Notes: generated from the letters alone by a model not told the origin. A stretch of DNA of 38,618 nt from Deltaproteobacteria bacterium (GCA_030603465.1 JAUVXT010000001.1:1-38618), one strand, 5' to 3'; counted from the first letter of the stretch, positions 5,004 to 17,104 are shown. Numbers and translations: made by a program.

Positions 5004-5232
5004 CCTCTTCACCCTCTTTTATGAAGGCTTTGACCTCCGGCTCACCATCGGTCTTAATGAGCACCTCTACCTTTCTTTCCGCATCATCCAGTTTTTTGGC
5101 GCAGAAACGGGAGAGATTAATGCCCTCTTCGAAGGCCTTCAGCGAATCGTCCAGGGTCATATCCCCCTCTTCCATCTTTTTTACAATCTCATCCAGCCTC
5201 TCAAGGGCCTTTTCAAATGTCTTTTCTGCCAT
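4996..5232 (-). CDS. xseB: exodeoxyribonuclease VII small subunit
   Basis: 78-aa ORF with FEKALERLDEIVKKMEEGDMTLDDSLKAFEEG, typical of XseB. It lies 4 nt downstream of xseA. Confidence 0.9.
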   Translation of the reverse strand: MAEKTFEKALERLDEIVKKMEEGDMTLDDSLKAFEEGINLSRFCAKKLDDAERKVEVLIKTDGEPEVKAFIKEGEEDE

Positions 5233-6601: not shown

Positions 6602-6837
6602 CAGAATATCAAAAAATATAGTATTTTATTATAATTAGCAGAGGCATTAATCAGTTGCAACTATTTTTATTACACAAGGTCCATTGGTTATATCAATAAT
6701 TTACACATGAAACACGTATCAATCTTTACTGCCAAAGTGAATCCTTAAGAAGCAGAATTTCTAATGGATTGATCATCTTTTGGAAAAACACACAGCCAGT
6801 GGGTTTCAGGAGGGCGTTTTATTGTACATGGAATTTC

Positions 6838-9800
6838 TCATCGACAACTCCATATTCGATATAAACCATCTGCCCATTGAATAAGAGCCTGTTTTGCAAG
6901 TTCAGGATCACTTAATTCCCGATCCTGATGGGCAATGTATTCATTCCGGAAGGTGTAAATCCTACCTATCATTGTGGGCAGGCCTGTCTGGGACACATCG
7001 GCAAATCGTATACGGACAGACTCGAAGATACCGCCAACCTTCCGCCGCGTTGTACGCACGTAGTCCAGGCTCCAGTGTAGAAGACCGATCGGCATTAATC
7101 CATTCTGATCAATTAAAGTTCTTTCCAAGTTCTTGGCCTGCCGATGGTGGAAGTTGGCCTCGCCGGTTGGCAGATCGGTCAAATCGGGATGAAAAAATTC
7201 ATACTGTCTGGTGCCGTCCGCAGGCACATCATCCTTAAGTTCCCTGAGAATCATGCCCTTGGCCGCCTCATCCATTGGGCCAAGTAGCGGGGTAAAGACA
7301 GGCGCGAACGATATATTCTCTTTATTCTGCAAGAATTGATACAAGGCTACTGCCTGCTGTACCGCCTTCTGGTAGCGAGAAGGCAGTTCTTTAAAATTAT
7401 CCAATGGGATAAAGGCAGAAATGCTAATATCTTCCTTCGGTTCAGGTTCTCCAAAAGGCAGGCTTAATTGCGGATCACTTATCTCTTCCACCAACTGCTT
7501 CAGCGACGGCCGACACATTCGCATGAGAGTTTTCAGCTTGTTGTCACTGAGATTCTCAAAGAGTTTTTGCGGAACATAGATGTATGTCCACTTCTCCCCT
7601 TCCTGTGAAGCCGCGTCGCACCATGCCGCCGCAGCCCTTGCCTTCAAAGGCACGTCTTTATCCTCACGCCCTTTTGTTTCAACCAGGGCATATTCCCTTG
7701 CACTCATCCGGACAATAAAATCCGGCGTGTAGAAAGAAAGTCTCCCCCGCTGGGTCTGGTAATCAATTCGAAGCGCCTGGGGTCCGCCATTTTTGCAGAA
7801 TGCTCTCACATCAGGGGCAAGATCGAGGAACTGGCACATTGCCACCTCCAGATTCCGATTGCATGGAACAAGATTAAAGACGGTGCGTTTGGCCGGAATT
7901 GCCGGGTGATGTTCGGAATGTGTTACCTGATAAGGCTTCCAACTGGAGGCCGAAACGCCTTTGCCCCCGGGTTTGCGTTCTTCCTTGATTGTCGTGCGAG
8001 AAAGTATCAACGGTACAAAAGCAGCCCGGATATGTTCTCGCACATCGCTATCGGCCAGACGGCTTAGAAGGCGAGGATCGAAAAGAGTGACCTTTTCCTT
8101 GAATAGCAGCTCCGTGATGAACGTCTCAAGAAGAGGAGCTATAACCTTATGTGTTCCACGAATGCCGGTGATGTGTTCAAGTTCATCCCGGTAATACGAA
8201 ATGGCGCCGATACCGTTTTCAAGAAGAGGCAGACGGATTTTCATCTTTTCTACAACTTCATTTGTCAGGAGATGGCGGCCCTCATACTGTATCTCATCCG
8301 ATCCCCTGCTGCCGAGGGGTAGCCGAAGATATTTTGAAAATTCTTTACGGATATCTTCAATTGTAAGCCTCTCAAGCGATGGTGTTCTCGTATAGCCTGC
8401 GGATATTGCGGGAAGTGTTACATCGAGTTTTTTTATATCCTTGTTTCCCGTATCGGTAAATATGGTCACAGTACTCTTCGGAACTTTATCAATATCTACG
8501 ACCTCAATGGGGAGGCCTTCCTGACTGAGTTCCTGCTGATAGAGGCTCACAAAGGCGTTGTGCTCGACAACCGTGACAAGTTCCGCAACGCCTTCACTCG
8601 GCGAAGTCATACGTCGCAGGCCCCGGCCAAGAGTTTGTTCCGGCAAAATATTCGCCTTGGAGGTGTAAGGCCGGAGAGGAACAACAGTCGTAACATTGCG
8701 GACATCCCAGCCTTCCCGTAGCATAAGGACGGACACAATACACCGGTAGGGACTTTTCCCCGAATCGAGATCCCGGGAAAGATCGCGCAGTATCCTCAAA
8801 TCTTCTTCGCTGATTTCCTTTTCACTCTCTACAAAGGATGGATACCCTTTATTTCTGCCGCCGATCCACTTGATTTTCCCCTTAAGGTTCGTATGGAGGT
8901 TGATCGTCCTGCCGTTCAATTCGCCAAACAAGGAATCGGTGTTCAGCCTCCTCGTAATCTGATCGGCGGCCTCGGTATCTTCCGTCATAACAAAAAGCAG
9001 AGGGCTCTTGCCGCTTTTTTCCCACTCTTCCCTGGATTTCAGCCAGCGTTGATAACCCATCATCAGGTGCTGCTGGAATCGCTCTGACGCATCGCTGCTG
9101 GGACGTTCGGAAAGACCTTCCCCGCGGCCTATGATGGGAATCTTTACAATTCCGCCGTTTACAGCTTCGCCTAATGGCGCGTCACATATAACATGCTGGA
9201 ATATCTGTCCGTGATTATCTTTTGGTGTCGCCGAAAAATCGAGCTGAGAAACCAGACCCCCTCCGGTCTTTCTCTGAATTTCAGTATGCAGAAAATCAAT
9301 GGCTTCATTCCAAGCTGAGCCGGGATCCCACAGGTGGTGTGCCTCGTCATTCAAAACCATGATACGTTCATGCGCGGTGATCCGCTCACGCAGTGCCCTC
9401 CCCGTATCAAGCGCGTTTCCCCTGGACACTGCCGGTCCCACCCAGTCGTATGTTTCGGCATCCTTCTTTGCTTTTCGTTTGCTGATATCATAGAGACGGT
9501 GAATATTGGTGAGATAGAGGTTTCCCCCGGTGGATGCACCGCTGGTTTCATCCTGGAGAACAACGGACAAGTTCCAGTCGCCGCGCCACGCTACCGGAAT
9601 CAGAGGGTCTTTATCAAAAATAATTCCATTGCCGAAATCTTCTTTCAATCGTTCAAAAACGGTCAGGTTTGGGGCAATGACCACAAAATGCCTGGACATG
9701 GGCGAATCGCTTTCACGAAGGGCATGGAAATAGCTCCATACGATGGCAAGGCTCATGACCTTTGTCTTGCCCGTGCCGGTTGCCAGTTTGAAGGCGTATT

Positions 9801-10239
9801 TTGCCCAGAGATCGTCTTCCGGATTGACACCGAGAGCGGCAGTCTCACGATCGGCACCGCCGAACTCGCAGATGGTACTGGATAGGCTTCTGATCCCCCG
9901 GACTTCATAAAGGTAAATCATTGTCTCGACTGCTTCCCGCTGGCAGTAATAATATCGAAAAGGAATATTCTCGCCTGTCGGTGTCTCGATCATATGATCC
10001 CGTTCGAACCAGTGGTAAAGGAGTTCCCGTGTTGTGTCGGAAGCGCCGGCATAATCGTTTTCGCGCCATGCCTTCACAAATGACCGAAGGTTGTTGGCGA
10101 CAGTGATAGAAGAGGCCCTGCGGCCTTTTGCAATTTCCGCAGGTTTTCCCTCTTCCGATCTGATTCTATGACAATTGGGTTCTTCGTGGGGGGCATAAAG
10201 TGGTTCAAGGGCGGCGGGGTTGATAACAGTGTTTGTCAT
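6838..10239 (-). CDS. res: Type III restriction enzyme Res subunit (SF2 helicase plus PD-(D/E)xK nuclease) with an extra ~210-aa C-terminal domain
   Basis: 1133-aa ORF. It has Walker A LATGTGKTKV, DEAH box LNDEAHHLW and motif VI QTLGRGLRR. The nuclease motif YTPDFIV...ALVETKGRE is at about aa 838-858. The start ATG overlaps the mod stop (ATGA at 10236-10239). Confidence 0.85.
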   Translation of the reverse strand: MTNTVINPAALEPLYAPHEEPNCHRIRSEEGKPAEIAKGRRASSITVANNLRSFVKAWRENDYAGASDTTRELLYHWFERDHMIETPTGENIPFRYYYCQREAVETMIYLYEVRGIRSLSSTICEFGGADRETAALGVNPEDDLWAKYAFKLATGTGKTKVMSLAIVWSYFHALRESDSPMSRHFVVIAPNLTVFERLKEDFGNGIIFDKDPLIPVAWRGDWNLSVVLQDETSGASTGGNLYLTNIHRLYDISKRKAKKDAETYDWVGPAVSRGNALDTGRALRERITAHERIMVLNDEAHHLWDPGSAWNEAIDFLHTEIQRKTGGGLVSQLDFSATPKDNHGQIFQHVICDAPLGEAVNGGIVKIPIIGRGEGLSERPSSDASERFQQHLMMGYQRWLKSREEWEKSGKSPLLFVMTEDTEAADQITRRLNTDSLFGELNGRTINLHTNLKGKIKWIGGRNKGYPSFVESEKEISEEDLRILRDLSRDLDSGKSPYRCIVSVLMLREGWDVRNVTTVVPLRPYTSKANILPEQTLGRGLRRMTSPSEGVAELVTVVEHNAFVSLYQQELSQEGLPIEVVDIDKVPKSTVTIFTDTGNKDIKKLDVTLPAISAGYTRTPSLERLTIEDIRKEFSKYLRLPLGSRGSDEIQYEGRHLLTNEVVEKMKIRLPLLENGIGAISYYRDELEHITGIRGTHKVIAPLLETFITELLFKEKVTLFDPRLLSRLADSDVREHIRAAFVPLILSRTTIKEERKPGGKGVSASSWKPYQVTHSEHHPAIPAKRTVFNLVPCNRNLEVAMCQFLDLAPDVRAFCKNGGPQALRIDYQTQRGRLSFYTPDFIVRMSAREYALVETKGREDKDVPLKARAAAAWCDAASQEGEKWTYIYVPQKLFENLSDNKLKTLMRMCRPSLKQLVEEISDPQLSLPFGEPEPKEDISISAFIPLDNFKELPSRYQKAVQQAVALYQFLQNKENISFAPVFTPLLGPMDEAAKGMILRELKDDVPADGTRQYEFFHPDLTDLPTGEANFHHRQAKNLERTLIDQNGLMPIGLLHWSLDYVRTTRRKVGGIFESVRIRFADVSQTGLPTMIGRIYTFRNEYIAHQDRELSDPELAKQALIQWADGLYRIWSCR

Positions 10240-12140
10240 ATCGTCACCTCCACCGTGATGCTCGTATCGCAGCCGAAGACATCGATAACCTTGACACAGG
10301 CGGTGTAGTTCCCCTTCTTCGCATACTTGTCATATCCGAGGGTGCTGATAGTCTTCAGTGAGCGATCTTTGCGGGTCCGGTAATCCTGCCAGTGATGCTC
10401 GAAGGGTTTGTCCTCATGCCAGTCAAAATCCACCGCCCAGAAGTCTATGAAGTCAAAGCCGCTTTTAATAGCTCTTTCTTTCAGAACTTCAAGTTCTTTA
10501 CTCGGCACCTCTGCAAGACTTGGCAGAAATTTTGTCAGTTTGATATCCACAATACGCTTGCCGCTTTTATCATGATAGACCGGTTCCGCCTCTAAGACAG
10601 CCACTTCAAGAAAAGGCGGCGGGTTTTTGCGGTTCTTTTCCATAATTTCGCGAGGGATGGGAATCAGCTTGATCTTGATACCTTCCGCCGCTTCCAGTTC
10701 ATGGCAGACGAGGCGGAGATCCATTTCAAATTCCCACGCAAGGCAATGTATCTCTTTTGCCCCCGCCTCTTGGGCCGCTTTTACAACGGCACGCAATTCT
10801 TCACGGGTAAATATGCTGTCTATATTGTCGACATGGACGAAGGCCTGCCCTTTTCTCCCATGTAAAAGACCCGTCGCATTGGGTAGCGGTTCCGCCCGGT
10901 AGAACTCCATAACAACGCGCCTGTGTTCCTCATCCGCGCCCTGAAGCCGTTCCTTCTGCCACCACTGGCGCTCGTAACGGCCGAGGTTGTAGACATCGAA
11001 AGACCGGTAGGGTTTATTGTCTTTGTATAGATTTCGCTGAACATCGATGAGACGTTTCCGGCTGGTGTGTATGGCGAAACGACCGAGATCGGCCATGATC
11101 CAGCGGCGGCCAAGTTTTTCCGCCACTGCGCCGGTCGTTCCGCTGCCACAGAAGAAGTCGGCGACGAGATCGCCTTCGTTGGAGGAAGCTTTGATAATAC
11201 GTTCAATCAACGCTTCTGGTTTTTGAGTCGAATAATCGTATCGTTCAGCCGCAACGGGATTGACAGGTGGAATATCATCCCATACGGAATCCACAATATC
11301 ACCAAGGACCTCGTCAAGATAGATAACTCGTGTTCCCCCCTTCGTTGGATTCACGTCATCGCGGTATAGCCTTCCTTCCTTATCCTTCTTGAATCGCTTG
11401 ATATATTCTGATTTGTGAGGCTTGTACTGCGTGTTCCAATTGTGAGCATCAGTCTTGCGGTACGAGAGTATCGTATCGTGTTTCTGAGGAAATTTTTGGG
11501 CGGTGGATCGTTTAAAAGCGAAGTAGGCCCAGACAACCTCGTTCAAGAACATTCCTGCGAACACATCATCAAGAAGTGATCGGATAAAAAAATTGATACG
11601 CCAATCGCAATGAACATAAATACTTCCATTCTCACTCAATAACTCACGCATCAATACCAACCGCTCATACATCATGTGCAGATATGAATCCGTTCCCTTC
11701 CCCCACATGTCGCGGTACGCAACCATCTCCAGAGCGGACTGGTCTTTTCCCACAGTTTCTTTTTCATCACCGATAGGAACATTCATCGTAAAATCCGCCC
11801 CCACATCAAAGGGTGGATCGATATAGACAAGATCTATCTTCCCCTTGAAATCCTTGAGCAGGCTCGCCATTACGAGCTTGTTGTCACCCCAGATGAGCAT
11901 GTTGCGAAAATCATCAAGGCGCTTGTTTTCCCTTTCGAATAATTCAAATTGACCCGATGCAACGGCCTCACTCCGCGGCTGATCCACCGTTTCGATCTTC
12001 TGGAGAGGCATGGCGCTCCCGGCAACATCCACCGCCCGCCGGTTGCCGTACTCGTCGTACTTCCCTTCCCAGATCAACTCTGTCTTCATCTGCGAAAAAG
12101 GATGCGGATTATCCAACCCCCATCGTATATTATCAGCCAT
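10236..12140 (-). CDS. mod: Type III R-M Mod subunit (beta-class N6A/N4C DNA methyltransferase)
   Basis: 634-aa ORF. The catalytic motif DPPF (LVYIDPPFDV) precedes AdoMet motif I (DFFCGSGTTGAVAEKLGRRWIMADL), which is the beta-class order. A GGAGG lies 6 nt upstream of the ATG. The gene is coupled to res. Confidence 0.85.
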   Translation of the reverse strand: MADNIRWGLDNPHPFSQMKTELIWEGKYDEYGNRRAVDVAGSAMPLQKIETVDQPRSEAVASGQFELFERENKRLDDFRNMLIWGDNKLVMASLLKDFKGKIDLVYIDPPFDVGADFTMNVPIGDEKETVGKDQSALEMVAYRDMWGKGTDSYLHMMYERLVLMRELLSENGSIYVHCDWRINFFIRSLLDDVFAGMFLNEVVWAYFAFKRSTAQKFPQKHDTILSYRKTDAHNWNTQYKPHKSEYIKRFKKDKEGRLYRDDVNPTKGGTRVIYLDEVLGDIVDSVWDDIPPVNPVAAERYDYSTQKPEALIERIIKASSNEGDLVADFFCGSGTTGAVAEKLGRRWIMADLGRFAIHTSRKRLIDVQRNLYKDNKPYRSFDVYNLGRYERQWWQKERLQGADEEHRRVVMEFYRAEPLPNATGLLHGRKGQAFVHVDNIDSIFTREELRAVVKAAQEAGAKEIHCLAWEFEMDLRLVCHELEAAEGIKIKLIPIPREIMEKNRKNPPPFLEVAVLEAEPVYHDKSGKRIVDIKLTKFLPSLAEVPSKELEVLKERAIKSGFDFIDFWAVDFDWHEDKPFEHHWQDYRTRKDRSLKTISTLGYDKYAKKGNYTACVKVIDVFGCDTSITVEVTI

Positions 12141-12152
12141 AAAATGCCTCCG

Positions 12153-12281
12153 TTACTCCGTCCTTAGTCGATTTAATCCCCGTTTGTCCTCAAACAACAA
12201 AAACTGGCACTTCTCCGGCAGTGGCTTGCCTTCCTCCAGATACCGATCAATATTCCTTATCTCATTATCCGTCAGTTTCAT
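12153..12281 (-). CDS. 42-codon leader ORF, in frame with mod and separated from it by one TAA
   Basis: Hand translation gives MKLTDNEIRNIDRYLEEGKPLPEKCQFLLFEDKRGLNRLRTE, then TAA (12155-12153), then four sense codons, then the mod ATG at 12140. All are in one frame. It is below the size cut-off of the ORF track. Confidence 0.35.
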   Translation of the reverse strand: MKLTDNEIRNIDRYLEEGKPLPEKCQFLLFEDKRGLNRLRTE

Positions 12282-12394
12282 CTGCTTGCCTTTTTAATGC
12301 ATTCTCTTCTGTTTCTACCAATCGTTTTTGTTCAGCACAGCGAGTGTTAAAAAATGTAACGGCCGCGGTCACAAGCCGCGAGGTTATGCAGTAA

Positions 12395-13231
12395 TTACAA
12401 TATAATATCAGGTGCATATTTACAAAATAGATCCGCACAAGCACACCTACCCCTTGCCAGATAACAGTTACTTTTTGGAATCGACTGTTTCAAAATTAGG
12501 TCCGCCCATTCAGATACCTTTTTCTTTTCGTCTCGATAACTTGGTTCGGCATACTCCATTTGTAATTCGATATGTTTTCGTAAAAAGAAACAGATAAAAT
12601 CAGCTAACTGGATTAATCCAACGTCCTTTGAATCAACAAAATGCGGTACGTCTACGATTTGGCTTAATTTGTCTTGTTTGGGCAATCTGTTGTAGTACGA
12701 ATCTGTCCATTCAGGGGCATCTAATAATAAATCTGTGAAATGTTTTTCTTCCCGAACTTCATTGTCAAAAATTAAAACAAATTTTCCTTTTTGATTAACT
12801 GTTCTGTCTTTTCCTCTTGGTGATCCTTGAAAATACTTTTGTAAAGACAGGGCGATATGCAATGCTAAAAACCGCCATAAAGTTGATATGTCACTGGCCA
12901 CCGATTCATCATTGAACGATTCTCTAAATTTTTCCTTGTCAACTGCACTAAATACTATGGAGTGCTTTCTTGCTCGAAGCCATTTAAAAATCGCGGCAAT
13001 GATTGCTGATCGTTGATTGCCGTTTAAGTCTCTCCATGGACTATTGCCTGAATAAAAATCTCTTGTATGTATTTCTTCTATAGTCCTACCAATGATTTCG
13101 CTTAAGGTTGACAATAAATTATTCCATGCTTCTTTGGTTGGCCGCATCCTATATGAATCAGCTATGACACCGACCATAATCCCTATTGGCTCCTCCGCCG
13201 TACCAGATTCATCTATGTAAATAAATTTCAT
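12395..13231 (-). CDS. DUF3800-like protein
   Basis: 278-aa ORF. It has the N-terminal MKFIYIDESGT (the DESG signature of DUF3800 as I remember it) and a C-terminal SKDVGLIQLADFICFFL. The gene is markedly AT-rich. Two 60-nt lines counted by hand gave 25% and 40% GC. Confidence 0.65.
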   Translation of the reverse strand: MKFIYIDESGTAEEPIGIMVGVIADSYRMRPTKEAWNNLLSTLSEIIGRTIEEIHTRDFYSGNSPWRDLNGNQRSAIIAAIFKWLRARKHSIVFSAVDKEKFRESFNDESVASDISTLWRFLALHIALSLQKYFQGSPRGKDRTVNQKGKFVLIFDNEVREEKHFTDLLLDAPEWTDSYYNRLPKQDKLSQIVDVPHFVDSKDVGLIQLADFICFFLRKHIELQMEYAEPSYRDEKKKVSEWADLILKQSIPKSNCYLARGRCACADLFCKYAPDIIL

Positions 13232-13403
13232 TTTCGTTTAACCTTTTGGGACATAACGCCCCGAAGGAGGGGCCATCGCCCCGCATTATATACGCCAAAA
13301 GCTAATGAGGCTTTGTGAAAAGAGAAATATTTGAGGACCTGTGTAAAAAATAAAACAGTCCCACCTTTTGGCGTTAAATGCATGCGCTGGTTAAACGACC
13401 GAA

Positions 13404-14285
13404 TCATGTGGATATAACTAAAACTTTAACTGATAGTTTGCCATCTGATGTGGTTCGTTCCCCTTCGATATCTGTCTTTAGACCTTCTGGATTCGCAATT
13501 ATATTTTTTGGGTCATAAATAACGCACCATAAATTCTCGCAATTAGGATGACGACGATAATGTTCAATGTCGATGATTAACTCATCTCCGATTTTTTTGC
13601 CGTGTGTCCGATCGCGTGCATATTTGAGTTCAAGTACTAAAGAGTATTTTGGAAGTAAAAAATCCATTCGCGTACTTGAACCTGCATAGCTTGGAGTAAA
13701 CTCTTCGGGCCTTATATCCGCAACCCAAGGCCTAAGTAATGCGTGCAACAGATCTTGTACGTCCCATTCAGAATCAAATGACAGAGGTTGAGCACCCTTA
13801 CGTCTATGTGATAGAGGATGCATAGCTCGCGGAAGGCCACGAAGAAGCACTTGAAGCAACTCCTCTATTGTTGATGGTCGCCTAATTTCCTGTGTTACTG
13901 ATTTAGCAAGTGCGGGCGATATTTCGTCAGGCGAGATTCCTGTTGGCAGAACTCGGCCACCGCGATAATATCGAAATCCATTTTCCTCTAAAGCTTTAAT
14001 AACACGTTCTCGATTTTCCTCCCAGTTAGTACGTTCTTCCGTACCCTCTTGAGGTGGCAAATCCATAAATTCTTCGATAACATTTCCAAGAACGGAGAGG
14101 CTATCTACATTTGGATCATTGCCCGCACGGAACAACCACTCTTTCCATTTAGAACCGTGCGAAAGATCTGGTGGCAGACCGGGTGCTCCTGCAGATTCAA
14201 ATAGCGCGTTTAGGGTCGCATGAGAACCTTGCAAAATATTGCCGACAATAGCGCAAACCACCTTTGGAATTCGTACATTAGCCAT
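13404..14285 (-). CDS. hypothetical protein with a C-terminal PD-(D/E)xK-like nuclease motif
   Basis: 293-aa ORF. The C-terminal half reads EWDVQDLLHALLRPW...IRPEEFTPSYAGSSTRMDFLLPKYSLVLELKYAR...LIIDIEHY...CVIYDP, with D208, E219 and K221 in a D-x(n)-E-x-K arrangement. The N-terminal ~130 aa are unassigned. There is no obvious Shine-Dalgarno sequence. Confidence 0.55.
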   Translation of the reverse strand: MANVRIPKVVCAIVGNILQGSHATLNALFESAGAPGLPPDLSHGSKWKEWLFRAGNDPNVDSLSVLGNVIEEFMDLPPQEGTEERTNWEENRERVIKALEENGFRYYRGGRVLPTGISPDEISPALAKSVTQEIRRPSTIEELLQVLLRGLPRAMHPLSHRRKGAQPLSFDSEWDVQDLLHALLRPWVADIRPEEFTPSYAGSSTRMDFLLPKYSLVLELKYARDRTHGKKIGDELIIDIEHYRRHPNCENLWCVIYDPKNIIANPEGLKTDIEGERTTSDGKLSVKVLVIST

Positions 14286-14333
14286 TTAAGAATCTATGAG
14301 TTTTATGTTTCAGCCGTTTAAATGTTAAGTTAA

Positions 14334-14376
14334 GAGAAATAAATCCAGTAATATTTGATATTAATGGCTCGTTTCT
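14334..14376. repeat. 43-bp perfect direct repeat, copy 1 (contains the palindrome TAATAT-TTG-ATATTA)
   Basis: GAGAAATAAATCCAGTAATATTTGATATTAATGGCTCGTTTCT is identical to 14484-14526. Confidence 0.95.
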
Positions 14377-14483
14377 TGATCGTTGTAATATCCTAATATT
14401 ACATTGTTTTTAATGAAAGAGTAAGGATTTTATATAATCCTAAGCAAGAATTGATTTTCTTTTGCGATTTTTTCACCCCCAAT

Positions 14484-14526
14484 GAGAAATAAATCCAGTA
14501 ATATTTGATATTAATGGCTCGTTTCT
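14484..14526. repeat. 43-bp perfect direct repeat, copy 2
   Basis: Identical to 14334-14376. The copies are offset by 150 bp with a 107-nt spacer. Confidence 0.95.
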
Positions 14527-14551
14527 AATAGCCGTAGAGTTCAGTATTTGT

Positions 14552-14650
14552 CTAATTTATCGAGGATGTCTCCAATCTTGCTTCAGACTCCGTCCTCATC
14601 TGCGAAAATGGATGTGGGTTATCCAGCCCCCAGCGTATCTTGTTATTCAT
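14552..14650 (-). pseudogene. remnant of the 5' end of a second mod gene
   Basis: The ORF reads MNNKIRWGLDNPHPFSQMRTE-SEARLETSSIN-stop. Its first 63 nt match the current mod 5' end (12078-12140) at 51/63 positions. Most differences after codon 4 are synonymous. It has its own GGAG upstream. Confidence 0.6.
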
Positions 14651-14689
14651 AAAGTTTCTCCACTTATGAGGAAATATATCCCTTTAGCT

Positions 14690-15463
14690 TCATATCATGG
14701 AATCTCCCAAATATATCTTTATCCTTTCCCTGTTAGCTCCAAGGCTTGAAAACTGTTTTTCACAGACATCGCTGAAACGTGCGAGCACCTTTCGATTGAT
14801 CTGTTCCTGATCCTCAAAGACGGCAAGAGAACGGAAAGTCGATCCCCACTTTTCAAACTGGAGCAAAGTAATGGTCGCGTCTCTTGTTTTATCATCCGTC
14901 GGCAACGCCTGGACAAAAATCGGTTTGGGCATCCCGTTTATACGGCAATCGATCAAGTACTTGCCTCCCGGATCGTGCAGGGGGTCGTGCCAGTCAAATT
15001 CACGGCGATTTTCCGGCACCGTTTCTTCCATAAACACCCTGAAATCTTCCATAAAAGTCGAACGAACCCGCTCACGTGAAAGGTACGTAACATCGGTTAT
15101 TCTAAGAAGCGCTTGAATAAAGCTATAAAGAGCATCGCCATACCGTTCTTCCTGAATCGGTATAATTAATTCGCCTTCACGGTCGTGGACGCTGAATACC
15201 GACAGCGCATTTGTAATGATTTTTTGTCTGGTTCCTCGTTGAAGGTCTTTCTCGTCCAGATCATATGTCAGGTGCATGTATGTGTGCCCTTCATCTGAAA
15301 GAATCCATTCCCCATTTTCTCTTTTCAAGGTAATCGCCAGATGATCGCCATCCTCAAACATAAAGGGAGTAAAAACTCGAAAACGATTTACACCTTCTGT
15401 CGATATTGTAACTTTGTCGCACACCTTTTCGCGAAAGTTACCTTCAATAATTGCTTTGTCCAT
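14690..15463 (-). CDS. DUF1828/DUF1829-like protein
   Basis: 257-aa ORF. The N-terminal pattern [35 protein letters not shown]...[14 protein letters not shown]...[13 protein letters not shown] matches my memory of DUF1828. The C-terminal half ([21 protein letters not shown]...) resembles DUF1829. The ATG lies 9 nt after a GAGGAGG formed by the end of the upstream gene. Confidence 0.55.
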
Positions 15464-15466
15464 GGT

Positions 15467-15949
15467 TTATACCTCCTCAAATAGGGTCGTCTGAGGATTA
15501 AAAGGAGTCTCAAATCCACACTCGCTAATCATACATGAAACAGCCTTGTTAAAGTCGGAAAACCTGTCCGTTGGTTCAGCGTATGTATCCTCCCTCGCGC
15601 CAAGTTCTTGATACCGTTCTGTGGCCAGATGAATGTGAAAATCGTAAAACATATTTCCCTCAATGGGATTTGTATGTTCGTGACTTTTTCCATTATATCG
15701 CCGTAAACGGAAGAATTGGTTTGAATTTGCCAGCCTGTAACCAAGAATAATCGAGAAATCGAGGGGATTGAAAAGGCTCTGCCGCAGGATTAAGCGAAAG
15801 TCGCTGTCGTCAGAACCTTTAACATCCAACTCACGTTCCTTGTGCCCTCTTTTGGGGTGCACCTGTATCTTTTTTCGATAATCAGCAGGAAGAACTTTCC
15901 GTTCTCTCAATAACAGAGCAACATCCTGGTCCGACAACATAGCGCTCAT
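15467..15949 (-). CDS. hypothetical 160-aa protein (His-rich motifs RRYNGKSHEHTNP and FHIHLATERYQ)
   Basis: The ORF has a good RBS (GGTGAGG, 6 nt upstream). Its stop is 3 nt from the next start, so it forms an operon with 14690-15463. I recognise no family. Confidence 0.55.
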   Translation of the reverse strand: MSAMLSDQDVALLLRERKVLPADYRKKIQVHPKRGHKERELDVKGSDDSDFRLILRQSLFNPLDFSIILGYRLANSNQFFRLRRYNGKSHEHTNPIEGNMFYDFHIHLATERYQELGAREDTYAEPTDRFSDFNKAVSCMISECGFETPFNPQTTLFEEV

Positions 15950-16033
15950 TTATTGCCTCACCCTTTCTTATTTCTTTGAAATCGACAAAATATTTAGCCC
16001 TTTGCCACTTTTCCTTTCATCCTTCACGACTAC

Positions 16034-16042
16034 ATTATACCA
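16034..16042 (-). promoter_or_regulatory. extended -10 promoter element TGGTATAAT
   Basis: The minus strand reads ...CAGTGGTATAATGTAG... about 85 nt upstream of the 160-aa gene start. The -35 is weak (TAGCTT at 17-nt spacing). Confidence 0.3.
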
Positions 16043-16136
16043 CTGAGCTGATGATTAAGCTATCGAAGGTTTCCTTGAATTCGACCGCATCGGATTCGCC
16101 TTCATCAATTATTTTTTCTATCTCAGATCGGTTCAT
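16035..16136 (-). pseudogene. 33-codon fragment resembling the N-terminus of AlbA_2 (Schlafen-like, divergent AAA) proteins
   Basis: The ORF reads MNRSEIEKIIDEGESDAVEFKETFDS, then LIISSVV and a stop. The GES..EFK segment is the typical start of AlbA_2-domain proteins. The rest of such a protein is missing. Confidence 0.4.
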
Positions 16137-16170
16137 CTTTCTCTGGTTTTAAGTTTTCCTTCACTGGTTG

Positions 16171-16207
16171 AAATAAAAAACCCCGCCTCACTCGATGAGA
16201 AACGGGG
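16171..16207 (-). terminator. rho-independent terminator (minus strand)
   Basis: The minus strand reads CCCCG-TTT-CTCA-TCGAG-TGAG-G-CGGGG followed by TTTTTTATTT. This is a two-part stem followed by a U-run. Confidence 0.55.
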
Positions 16208-16460
16208 TCTGTTGGCATGGTTTTTCATTGTTATCCCTCTTCAGGTTTCATAAAAAAATAAAATCACCGGATACAATCCTATTCTCTTTGCTTTGTTGTC
16301 ACCGCTAGTGTATGTAACAAATAAGCTTTTGAAATGTCAATATATTTTTCACAGGACAGGAAGGATGTACCAGAGAGACGCCGGGTTCGTCCAGGGGAGT
16401 GGAAAAACCACTTTTTGCAAAACTGTCAATAATTGAATAGTGTCATATCAACGATACTCT

Positions 16461-16522
16461 GTCATTTCGAAGGAGTCTTCACGACTGAGAAATCTTAGAT
16501 TTCTCCCTGCGGTCGAAATGAC
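16461..16522. repeat. REP-like nested palindrome (GTCATTTCGA...TCGAAATGAC enclosing GAGAAATCT-T-AGATTTCTC)
   Basis: The outer arms are 10 bp (16461-16470 and 16513-16522). The inner arms are a perfect 9-bp pair. The termini resemble those of the element at 36789-36857. Confidence 0.6.
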
Positions 16523-16582
16523 ATTTCTTGATTGACACGACAATAGCATGAAAACCGCATGAGGAGGGCAGAGAAGGTGGAT

Positions 16583-17104
16583 ATGAAGATTTTTGACAAA
16601 ATGGAGTCGTCCGATCTCAGGAATTATCTGGAATTCCTGCTCCGGCACTACCGGGTCATGGACGCCTTCTGGTTCATCTATGTGGCCGAGCGTTTTGACC
16701 AGAAGACAGCCGAGGAGATTAATGAGAAGGTCTGGGGAAGGGTGGCCGGCATGGCCGCAAAGGATCTGAAAAATCGCTTTAATATTACTGAAAAGGGGCT
16801 TGAGGGATTTGTAAAGGCCCAGAGACTATTCCCCTGGTGTGTCCTCGTGGGGTATCAGATTCAGGAGTTTGAAGATGAAGTAATTATCTCCGTGCCCTCC
16901 TGTCCCACACAGGAGGCCAGACTAAACCGCGGATTGGGTGAATATGTCTGCAAGGATATGCACCGTTCCGAATTTACAAATTTTGCCACAGCCATAGACA
17001 GGCGCATCCAAGTTGAGTGTCTCTTTGCGCCCCCCGATCCGCATCCCGACGATATGTTCTGTCAGTGGCGGTTTTCCATTGGAGAGAAATCCGAGGGTGA
17101 ATGA
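16583..17104 (+). CDS. DUF6125-like cytosolic protein
   Basis: The ORF reads [39 protein letters not shown]...[21 protein letters not shown]...[20 protein letters not shown]. The family name is from memory. I chose the ATG at 16583 because of its strong RBS (AGGTGG). The track start is 16559. Confidence 0.55.

Follow-up and report, generated by a model that had tools for sequence, protein, structure and literature searches.

Two candidate defence modules upstream of a Type III restriction-modification operon: an AbiJ-like nuclease and a DUF3800 protein in cassette-like units

Organization of the locus

We analysed a 38,618-nucleotide stretch of DNA assigned to a Deltaproteobacteria bacterium (GCA_030603465.1, JAUVXT010000001.1:1-38618), referred to below as the window, in which two genes of foreign composition lie on the minus strand directly upstream of a Type III restriction-modification (R-M) operon. 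Gene 1 (13404-14285) encodes a 293-aa protein with an AbiJ-NTD-like N-terminal domain and a DpnII/MboI-type PD-(D/E)xK nuclease, and gene 2 (12395-13231) encodes a 278-aa DUF3800 protein with a predicted RNase H-like fold. A preliminary description of this DNA had presented the pair as a candidate undescribed defence system. The results reported here make it rather probable that they are instead two independent single-gene modules, an abortive infection (Abi)-like effector and a DUF3800 protein, both in cassette-type units.

Read along the minus strand, the gene order is a 160-aa gene, a 257-aa gene, a copy of the 5' end of mod, AT-rich non-coding DNA, gene 1, gene 2, mod and res. Gene 1 and gene 2 are separated by 172 nt and gene 2 and mod by 254 nt, and the AT-rich non-coding block upstream of gene 1 measures about 265 nt. 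The methyltransferase gene mod (10236-12140, minus strand) was identified by PF01555 (E=1.5e-43) and the PADLOC model MTase_III (E=3.4e-237), and res, coding for the 1133-aa helicase-nuclease subunit (6838-10239, minus strand), by PF04851 and the PADLOC model REase_III (E=4.5e-28). The preliminary description had placed both open reading frames (ORFs) correctly, and the peptides it quoted (RMDFLLPKYSLVLELKYAR, EWDVQDLLHALLRPW, LIIDIEHY, CVIYDP, YIDESG and LIQLADF) are all present in the translations; the codons of D208, E219 and K221 of gene 1 are found at 13662-13664, 13629-13631 and 13623-13625, in agreement with it. The AT-richness it noted for gene 2 is real as well, with 36.9% GC compared with 49-50% in mod and res. 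The GC content of gene 1 is 43.5% and that of the flanks 48.9%. At third codon positions, GC amounts to 31.9% and 30.6% in the two genes versus 52-56% in mod and res. Composition marks both genes as foreign and does not set one apart from the other.

Gene 1 encodes a DpnII/MboI-type nuclease domain

The C-terminal part of the gene 1 protein (residues 143-289; 13419-13859, minus strand) matched the Pfam family PF18742 (REase_DpnII-MboI) over profile positions 2-146 of 150 with E=1.3e-43 and 148.5 bits, far above the cut-off of 27. The same part of the protein, and no other, was matched by the Argonaute-associated PADLOC model Aga_Helical-REase (E=2.8e-26). The only solved relative in sequence was EcbAgaN (PDB 23wq; E=3.3e-6). 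D208, E219 and K221 were invariant among 22 full-length homologues in an alignment at 63-85% identity, and the 11-residue spacing from D to E is the same as in D298/E309-V-K311 of EcbAgaN (PMC13535254). The nuclease assignment proposed in the preliminary description from the D...E-x-K core is strong at the family level. In the AlphaFold2 model, strands were predicted at residues 207-211, 216-222, 251-257, 275-279 and 282-291, although the predicted local distance difference test score (pLDDT) was only 37-54 over residues 121-210.

Homologues of gene 1 formed 3351 clusters at E<=0.001 (at the 90% identity level the family exceeds 3,000 clusters), and the best 120 were full-length or nearly so, with 64-87% identity. 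Sequences 60-85% identical are spread across Archaea, Acidobacteriota, Planctomycetota, Myxococcota and Desulfobacterota-like genomes. They include metagenome-assembled genomes (MAGs) labelled Methanobacteriota and Nanoarchaeota (80-83% identity) as well as Sorangium cellulosum, Acidobacteriota, Phycisphaerae and Polyangiaceae. Plasmids of Enterobacter and Pantoea carry homologues mislabelled as 'transposase', and relatives of the PF18742 domain occur in phages (phrog_29450). No family recurred around gene 1 homologues among the neighbour families listed (25 of 48), where the maximum was AAA_22, seen twice.

We also noted a protein that shares the nuclease domain in another setting. The IncX1 plasmid NZ_CP064012.1 (locus L085, 3725-4516; names such as L019 and L083 denote related loci compared with the window) encodes a 263-aa protein whose C-terminal domain is 43.5% identical to the gene 1 nuclease and whose N-terminus is different. 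It was matched by 306 records, mostly from Escherichia, Enterobacter and Klebsiella plasmids, some of them labelled 'malate dehydrogenase', and in the one IncX1 record inspected its gene adjoins one for an 'Abi family protein'.

The N-terminal domain of gene 1 recurs in front of different effector domains

The N-terminal domain (residues 1-125; 13911-14285, minus strand) comprises about 115-125 aa and is predicted to be mostly alpha-helical, with five helices and a beta-hairpin, at a pLDDT of about 75-93 over residues 1-120. It had been described as an unassigned domain of about 130 aa. This is correct insofar as residues 1-125 matched no Pfam, NCBIfam or PADLOC model, and a Foldseek search against the PDB gave no significant match for the domain (the best was Can2, E=0.04, TM-score about 0.2). 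Nevertheless, the domain is a recurrent module: an exhaustive HMMER search with residues 1-125 found it in 327 representative clusters, and most of the top 150 of these lack the gene 1 nuclease domain.

We surveyed its partners by running Pfam on 46 longer proteins that contain the N-domain and lack the gene 1 nuclease domain. The AbiJ-type HEPN domain Abi_C was found in 24 of them, TIR_2 in 6, the CAP12-PCTIR TIR domain (CAP12/Pycsar) in 4 and AbiJ_NTD3 in 3, while Pkinase, CHAT, PNP_UDP_1 and an HSP70 fragment were seen once each. When ten of the proteins with this N-domain were tested with PADLOC, its AbiJ model matched the C-terminal part of six, and it is the HEPN-bearing ones that receive the AbiJ label. 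H22, P39, K46, W50 and G67 are invariant across these architectures.

AbiJ-NTDs have been defined as N-terminal modules of about 100-140 aa (Anantharaman et al. 2013, PMC3710099). Their fusion partners are domains of the HEPN, REase-fold, TIR, kinase and nucleoside-processing types, and the modules were proposed to sense invader components and to restrain the toxic C-terminal domain (PMC3710099). The size, predicted fold and partners of the gene 1 N-domain match this class, which suggests an AbiJ-NTD-like module, be it one of the named NTD1-5 or a further NTD. Together with the PF18742 match, the recurrence of the N-domain before HEPN, TIR, kinase, CHAT and PNP_UDP_1 domains bears out the earlier proposal of a sensor or adaptor domain joined to a restriction-fold effector.

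Gene 2 belongs to a DUF3800 subfamily with variable, defence-rich neighbourhoods

Gene 2 matched PF12686 over the full length of the profile (E=1.6e-13, 52.1 bits, cut-off 21), in line with its earlier assignment to DUF3800 from short signatures. In an alignment of 21 sequences, D7, E8 and D156 were at least 90% conserved and Q208 and D211 invariant, and the protein carries the N-terminal DE and C-terminal QxxD motifs as defined in PMC7736814. The AlphaFold2 model (pLDDT 81, predicted TM-score 0.84) had archaeal RNase HII structures as its top three Foldseek matches (probability 0.98-1.0, E 5e-3 to 2e-2, TM-score 0.35-0.52), the best being 2dff and 1eke with a probability of 1.0. An RNase H-like assignment of DUF3800 has been published (PMC7736814, PMC10910872), and the predicted structure suggests that gene 2 is probably an RNase H-like, metal-dependent nucleic-acid hydrolase. 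Its subfamily consists of proteins of about 278 aa that share 60-89% identity across phyla (61-89% for the 20 relatives in the alignment), with relatives in MAGs labelled Aminicenantes, Bacteroidales, Flavobacteriaceae and Chloroflexi.

Structured RNAs associated with DUF3800 were considered for gene 2 and rejected: Rfam models, including DUF3800-I to XI, drum and skipping-rope, gave no match at gathering score in the window and none in 19 related loci, and nothing relevant was found over 11900-16600 at E<=10.

The neighbourhoods of gene 2 relatives were surveyed in about 50 non-redundant loci, which gave 124 neighbours within two genes. The commonest families were ResIII (4), N6_N4_Mtase (3) and AAA_21 in Pfam and mad2, mad3, AbiLi and AriA in PADLOC, with N6_Mtase, GmrSD_N, mad8 and several methylase models also found repeatedly. 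In L019, whose DUF3800 protein is 89% identical to gene 2, the order is UvrD - DUF3800 - SieB - Type III mod-res. In L020, PDDEXK_1, AAA_13 and DUF3800 form an apparent operon, and in L023 the DUF3800 gene lies within a Type I hsd locus together with Fic, a second DUF3800 gene and a reverse transcriptase; most relatives have no reverse transcriptase nearby. Plasmid relatives adjoin an S subunit or a Shedu gene. The contexts of gene 2 relatives are defence-rich but variable.

One of these arrangements was seen several times. The order PDDEXK_1 - AAA_13 (884 aa) - DUF3800 recurs in L020 (2399-6843), L021, L022, L029 and L074, and in L020 the DUF3800 gene starts 2 nt past the AAA_13 stop codon. 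It may be a separate DUF3800 system made up of several genes.

Gene 1 and gene 2 do not travel together

When the first 82 related loci were searched with both proteins by tblastn, gene 1 was found in 18, gene 2 in 64 and both in none. In L083, the nineteenth locus with gene 1, no DUF3800 gene was present among the called genes. Both genes were therefore found together in 0 of 19 gene-1 loci and 0 of 64 gene-2 loci. The absence of the partner is informative since most loci have enough flanking sequence: at least 1.2 kb was available downstream in 15 of the first 18 gene-1 loci and at least 1.2 kb upstream in 36 gene-2 loci. Even the closest relatives, at 80-89% identity, lack the partner: those of gene 1 (L083, L001 and L002) are without gene 2, and those of gene 2 (L019 and L024-L028) without gene 1.

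The idea of a single undescribed two-gene system in the preliminary description, together with the co-localisation across genomes that it would have implied, is therefore not borne out by the loci compared. Its fallback, two independent single-gene modules, is favoured, but not for the reason it gave: the argument from differing base composition does not hold because third-position GC is the same in both genes.

Both genes are bounded by attC-like core boxes

DNA homology to the relatives is confined to each ORF plus at most 40 nt. For gene 1 it extends over 13390-14322 in comparison with L083 and L001 and ends at 14321 in comparison with L002; for gene 2 its limits are about 12380-12393 on one side and 13257-13260 on the other (L019, L024-L028). 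These limits coincide with sequences resembling the RYYYAAC / GTTRRRY core boxes of integron attC sites. The 5' boundary of the gene 1 unit is TTTAAAC (14316-14322, minus strand), where L002 has a canonical GTTAAAC. In the spacer between the two genes (13251-13396, minus strand), an R'' box GTTTAAC (13390-13396) stands just past the gene 1 stop codon and an R'-like GTTATGT at 13251-13257. As read from the sequence, reverse-complementing G plus the 5' TTAAAC of the gene 1 cassette gives exactly this R'' box, and gene 2 homology starts at G/TTATGT (13257, the slash marking the limit). The spacer contains no intact attC hairpin, and its predicted fold leaves the boxes unpaired. On the 3' side of gene 2, an attC-like hairpin of 36 nt (12354-12389, minus strand) has R'' GCATAAC (12383-12389) and R' GTTACAT (12354-12360) at its two ends. 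At -6.3 kcal/mol (z=-1.1) it is not significant alone, and it appears degenerate or truncated.

Better preserved sites were present in relatives. L019 contains an attC-like site at 5075-5208 with a score of 23.3 (GCATAAC-TAAGAGCGTTTTGTCATTC...GAATGACAAAACGCTCTTA-GTTATGG), and a 61-nt attC-like hairpin lies 3' of its DUF3800 gene (z=-3.5). Similar hairpins stand 3' of the gene-1 relative in L083 and of the gene-2 relative in L032 (z=-3.0 each), and in L018 sites of the GCCTAAC...GTTAGGC type were seen by eye between small co-oriented ORFs. Compared with L019, the window lacks exactly one cassette, a unit carrying SieB, and the junction falls at attC-like boxes.

The additional unit of L019 (8784-9534) holds a gene with a SieB (superinfection exclusion) domain between the DUF3800 gene and mod; it is of cassette size and is bounded by attC-like boxes.

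Canonical sites in relatives were found by a looser detector that scores arm complementarity, while a strict search, requiring the boxes to pair in the minimum-free-energy fold, returned almost nothing even in relatives. Intact attC sites are not claimed for the window, in which the detector found none above background. No recombinase domain was present among the window ORFs that were scanned. Phage-defence cassettes in integrons and pseudo-attC copies within defence islands have been reported (Kieffer 2025, Darracq 2025, Getz 2025). Taken with the boundaries described above, there is moderate evidence, read from the sequence, that both units may be former cassettes or parts of a decayed integrase-less array embedded in the defence island.

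The genes lie in a variable defence island with two mod relics

The two genes and the R-M operon are part of a strain-specific island of about 9.9 kb (6668-16577) between xseA and a gene for a DUF6125 protein. In L087 and L088, whose Dxs is 89% identical, the island is absent: the DUF6125 gene and xseA are only 302 nt apart (L087 7160-7461) and collinearity with the window is lost at 6667 and 16578, from which it follows that the whole island is an insertion. The host appears to be a Syntrophales-like, uncultured member of the deltaproteobacteria. In L086 (97% identical in Dxs) yet another sequence lies just upstream of xseA, which suggests that the xseA/DUF6125 junction is an integration hotspot.

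Besides the R-M operon, the island contains the two-gene PADLOC candidate system PDC-M24 (14690-15949, minus strand), a pair that the preliminary description had not recorded. Its components are M24B (14690-15463; a DUF1828 protein) and M24A (15467-15949), identified with E=5.2e-22 and E=3.5e-4, respectively, by PADLOC and, for DUF1828, with E=1e-26 by Pfam; phage relatives of these genes are found in phrog_5059 and phrog_27326. With a Type III R-M operon and PDC-M24 in a variable island that is absent from a close relative, the defence-island setting assumed earlier is well founded.

Gene 1 and gene 2 are indeed bracketed by mod 5'-end homology, as had been reported: 12077-12151 and 14587-14661 are 80% identical over 75 nt. 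The outer copy belongs to a relic of the window-type mod 5' end (14552-14661, minus strand), in which a ribosome-binding site and 21 conserved codons (MNNKIRWGLDNPHPFSQMRTE...) immediately follow the PDC-M24B gene. A second relic (12153-12351, minus strand) is of the L019 type and includes a 42-codon remnant ORF (12153-12281, MKLTDNEIRNIDRYLEEGKPLPEKCQFLLFEDKR...); over 12179-12351 it is 81.5% identical (173 nt) to the upstream region and the first 34 or so codons of the L019 mod. Since this relic follows gene 2, and the window Mod and Res share no more than 37% and 34% identity with their L019 counterparts, gene 2 must once have preceded another Type III system, the body of which was later replaced. 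Both relics break just before a conserved E-L/V-x-W-x-G-K motif. Two different relics of this kind suggest repeated recombination or insertion at mod 5' ends.

Comparison with known systems

Gene 1 resembles AbiJ in being a single polypeptide in which a helical N-domain of about 100-140 aa precedes a toxic enzymatic domain, and its N-domain stands before Abi_C/AbiJ HEPN in 24 of the 46 proteins surveyed (PADLOC AbiJ, PDLC02347). AbiJ-NTD fusions to REase-fold, TIR and kinase domains were already listed in 2013 (PMC3710099). It differs from AbiJ in carrying a DpnII/MboI-type PD-(D/E)xK domain in place of the HEPN RNase, and indeed neither Abi_C nor AbiJ matched gene 1 at E<=1. Moreover, neither Pfam, which holds AbiJ_NTD3, nor the N-terminal portion of the AbiJ model in PADLOC matched its N-domain. 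Pfam holds NTD4 and NTD5 models too.

In the long-B Argonaute system BPAN, EcbAgaN serves as the nuclease effector (PDB 23wq; PMC13535254, PMC10620215). On its own, the C-terminal domain of EcbAgaN is toxic, while in the full-length dimer the helical N-domain keeps it autoinhibited; binding of a partner by the N-domain leads to an octamer that acts as a non-specific DNase (PMC13535254). Gene 1 shares with it a homologous C-terminal PD-(D/E)xK domain, the same 11-residue spacing in the D...E-x-K core and the order of a helical N-domain followed by the nuclease. However, the N-domains are unrelated, the PADLOC and PDB alignments covering only residues 128-273 and 144-229 of gene 1, and gene 1 is shorter (293 versus 390 aa). 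A prokaryotic Argonaute was not found among the six island proteins, and the other window ORFs that were scanned are housekeeping genes. With DpnII and MboI, gene 1 has in common that its nuclease is of the same family, PF18742, but the gene 1 family has no cognate methyltransferase and its N-domain is shared with effectors that are not restriction enzymes. No methylase was annotated beside gene 1 homologues or occurred among the neighbour families listed (25 of 48), and the window Mod gave no tblastn match in the gene-1 loci.

DUF3800 proteins are known from retron type VII, from TPR-DUF3800 associated with Cas12a3/Cas12a2 and from the RNA motifs DUF3800-I to XI (PMC7736814, PMC10910872, PMC13594972, PMC5737381). 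Gene 2 shares with them the Pfam family, the DE and QxxD motifs, the RNase H2-like predicted fold and the link to mobile elements and defence, but there is no RVT, TPR or Cas domain among the island proteins. With the integron defence cassettes (BRiC), the locus has in common compact single-ORF units, tight RYYYAAC/GTTRRRY limits, attC-like hairpins in relatives and the one-cassette difference from L019. It differs from them in that we found no integrase and, in the window, no attC-like site above background. Neither gene family is reported among the tested integron defence cassettes in the literature that was accessible.

From these comparisons gene 1 is predicted to work like the AbiJ-class Abi proteins and AgaN while being a member of neither, having no HEPN domain, no Argonaute and an unlike N-domain. 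Gene 1 adds an uncharacterised variant to an architecture class that had been predicted, and gene 2 adds a new protein to DUF3800. Profile searches place both genes in known protein families.

A model for gene 1 and its alternatives

We propose that the N-domain of gene 1 would hold the C-terminal DpnII/MboI-type DNase (D208/E219/K221) inactive, and that a phage-derived cue acting through the N-domain would release or oligomerise it, with DNA degradation and abortive infection as the outcome. An autoinhibited single-chain DNase is suggested because gene 1 has its nuclease family and its architectural logic in common with EcbAgaN. With its recurrent N-domain, gene 1 can be taken as a candidate for AbiJ-like abortive infection by a single protein, the effector being a DNase. 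Gene 1 and gene 2 may have been stacked as cassette-type units at the 5' end of the Type III mod-res operon, their attC sites decaying thereafter.

The view that the two genes form one undescribed defence system would account for their common orientation at a distance of 172 nt, the low third-position GC of about 31% in both, their position within one defence island and the lack of a consensus terminator between them. A consensus promoter scan of 12000-16600 gave fewer sites than shuffled sequence, with none upstream of gene 1 or in the gene 1/gene 2 spacer. Yet no locus among the 19 with gene 1 or the 64 with gene 2 contains both, with flanks that are informative, the closest relatives of each do without the partner, and DNA homology stops at the limits of each ORF. 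We consider a two-gene system very unlikely. Only slightly less improbable is an orphan DpnII/MboI-type Type II enzyme that cuts unmethylated GATC, from which the host would be protected by methylation through an unlinked Dam-like enzyme or the adjacent Mod. Gene 1 does match the Pfam family named after DpnII and MboI nearly end to end, a mod methyltransferase gene lies 1.3 kb downstream of it, and DpnII is similar in length to gene 1 (293 aa). But homologues have no methyltransferase annotated beside them or among the neighbour families listed (25 of 48), and a family that is 60-85% identical across phyla has spread without a travelling methylase. The N-domain also occurs in HEPN, TIR and kinase proteins, which are not restriction enzymes, and the nearest characterised relative, EcbAgaN, is a non-specific DNase (PMC13535254). 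GATC depletion was sought as a sign of a GATC-specific enzyme and was not seen, the observed/expected ratio in the window being 1.22.

For gene 2, the position invites another explanation, namely that DUF3800 is coupled to the Type III R-M system as a second-line guard that fires when Mod or Res is inhibited, comparable to PrrC/EcoprrI. Gene 2 stands directly upstream of mod in the window, an 89% identical DUF3800 in L019 is upstream of a Type III mod-res pair that is distant from that of the window (37% and 34% identity), the L019-type mod relic still follows gene 2, other relatives lie within Type I hsd loci or beside an S subunit, and ResIII and methylase domains head the neighbour list. 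Nevertheless, an R-M gene within two genes is missing from most of the approximately 50 non-redundant gene-2 loci (ResIII accounts for 4 and N6_N4_Mtase for 3 of the 124 neighbours), and in L019 the SieB cassette stands between DUF3800 and mod. The relic also indicates that the arrangements in the window and in L019 have a common ancestry, so that they do not count as two independent events, and unrelated defence genes, too, are often embedded in R-M loci. We regard such a guard as unlikely, and to the same degree we doubt that either gene, or both, acts as a selfish stabilising or toxin module of a cassette array or mobile element, or in competition between elements, instead of against phages. 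Gene 1 relatives do occur beside HigB/HigA-like and UPF0175 genes and on plasmids, a relative of its nuclease domain is carried by many IncX1 conjugative plasmids, and phages bear PF18742 relatives (phrog_29450); gene 1 has, however, no conserved antitoxin-like partner, and the partners of its N-domain (AbiJ HEPN, TIR, CHAT, PNP) are typical of anti-phage effectors.

Several observations count against two independent cassette-type modules with an Abi-like gene 1. Confidence is low for the nuclease part of the predicted gene 1 structure (pLDDT 37-54, residues 121-210), with no Foldseek match in the PDB at E<=0.001, and most gene 1 relatives are surrounded by housekeeping or toxin-antitoxin genes and do not lie in evident defence islands. 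Within the window, no attC-like site scored at least 10, and the 8 sites scoring at least 6 compare with 7-9 in shuffled sequences. Core-box enrichment in relatives was only moderate (6/14, 10/48 and 17/50 versus 1.0, 4.5 and 9.7 in shuffles), and a crude attC detector run over 491 kb of loci returned 22 sites with a score of at least 9 versus 8 in shuffles. A tblastn search of the window and 83 loci with an IntI1 query gave no integrase-like ORF, a result of lead quality. Finally, a DUF3800 gene stands upstream of a Type III mod in the window and, with a protein 89% identical, in L019, which leaves some chance of functional coupling to the R-M system.

Two independent modules nevertheless remain the reading that we prefer. 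A wider proposal built on it is considerably more tentative, and we hold it to be possible but doubtful: the gene 1 family would comprise cassette-spread single-protein Abi nucleases with a portable phage-sensor N-domain, and DUF3800 would serve as a guard of Type III restriction. According to this proposal, one N-domain could be coupled to outputs as different as DNase, HEPN RNase, TIR, kinase or caspase-like (CHAT) activity.

If the model is correct, gene 1 adds a compact one-gene defence module of 293 aa, whose sensor domain is reused with at least five effector chemistries. It would then provide a handle for finding the cue of the N-domain and for comparing the outputs driven by one input. 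DUF3800 is a long-standing puzzle linked to retrons, Cas12a3 and many structured RNAs, and an RNA-motif-free subfamily at R-M operons offers a tractable entry point; a guard role, if true, would be the first function for a family with 11 orphan RNA motifs. The locus also illustrates how islands are built, with cassette-like units stacked 5' of an R-M operon; the truncated starts of mod genes and the decayed attC-like sites would be the scars of this process. Annotation can be corrected as well: full-length gene 1 homologues are called 'transposase', and relatives sharing only the nuclease domain 'malate dehydrogenase'.

Other features of the window

The AT-rich non-coding block upstream of gene 1 (14323-14586, minus strand; about 33% GC) contains perfect 43-nt direct repeats at 14334-14376 and 14484-14526, each with the palindrome CCAnTAATAT-N3-ATATTAnTGG, and a further perfect palindrome, TGTAATAT-N4-ATATTACA, at 14384-14403. 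An intergenic region of L019 (2536-2734) matches it at 78-100% identity, and the motif AATGTAATATTA recurs in L019 upstream of an HTH/M78-peptidase gene. The repeats and palindromes look like candidate operators.

The C-terminus of Res (6838-7100) is a long extension that ends in an Rx5H motif reminiscent of HEPN domains (FRNEYIAHQD). A HEPN domain was considered for this motif (RNEYIAH) and rejected, as an ad hoc AbiJ-HEPN profile gave no match and Pfam assigned ResIII only.

The tetranucleotide CTAG is very rare in the window, with 5 sites in 38.6 kb (4595, 16305, 25297, 26319 and 26889) and an observed/expected ratio of 0.03; GTAC and ACGT are also low (observed/expected about 0.38-0.39). 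Near the island edge, a minus-strand ORF of 33 codons (16035-16136) encodes MNRSEIEKIIDEGESDAVEFKETFDSLIISSVV, followed by a stop codon. It presumably resembles the start of AlbA_2/Schlafen-like 'putative DNA-binding' proteins and may be another gene remnant.

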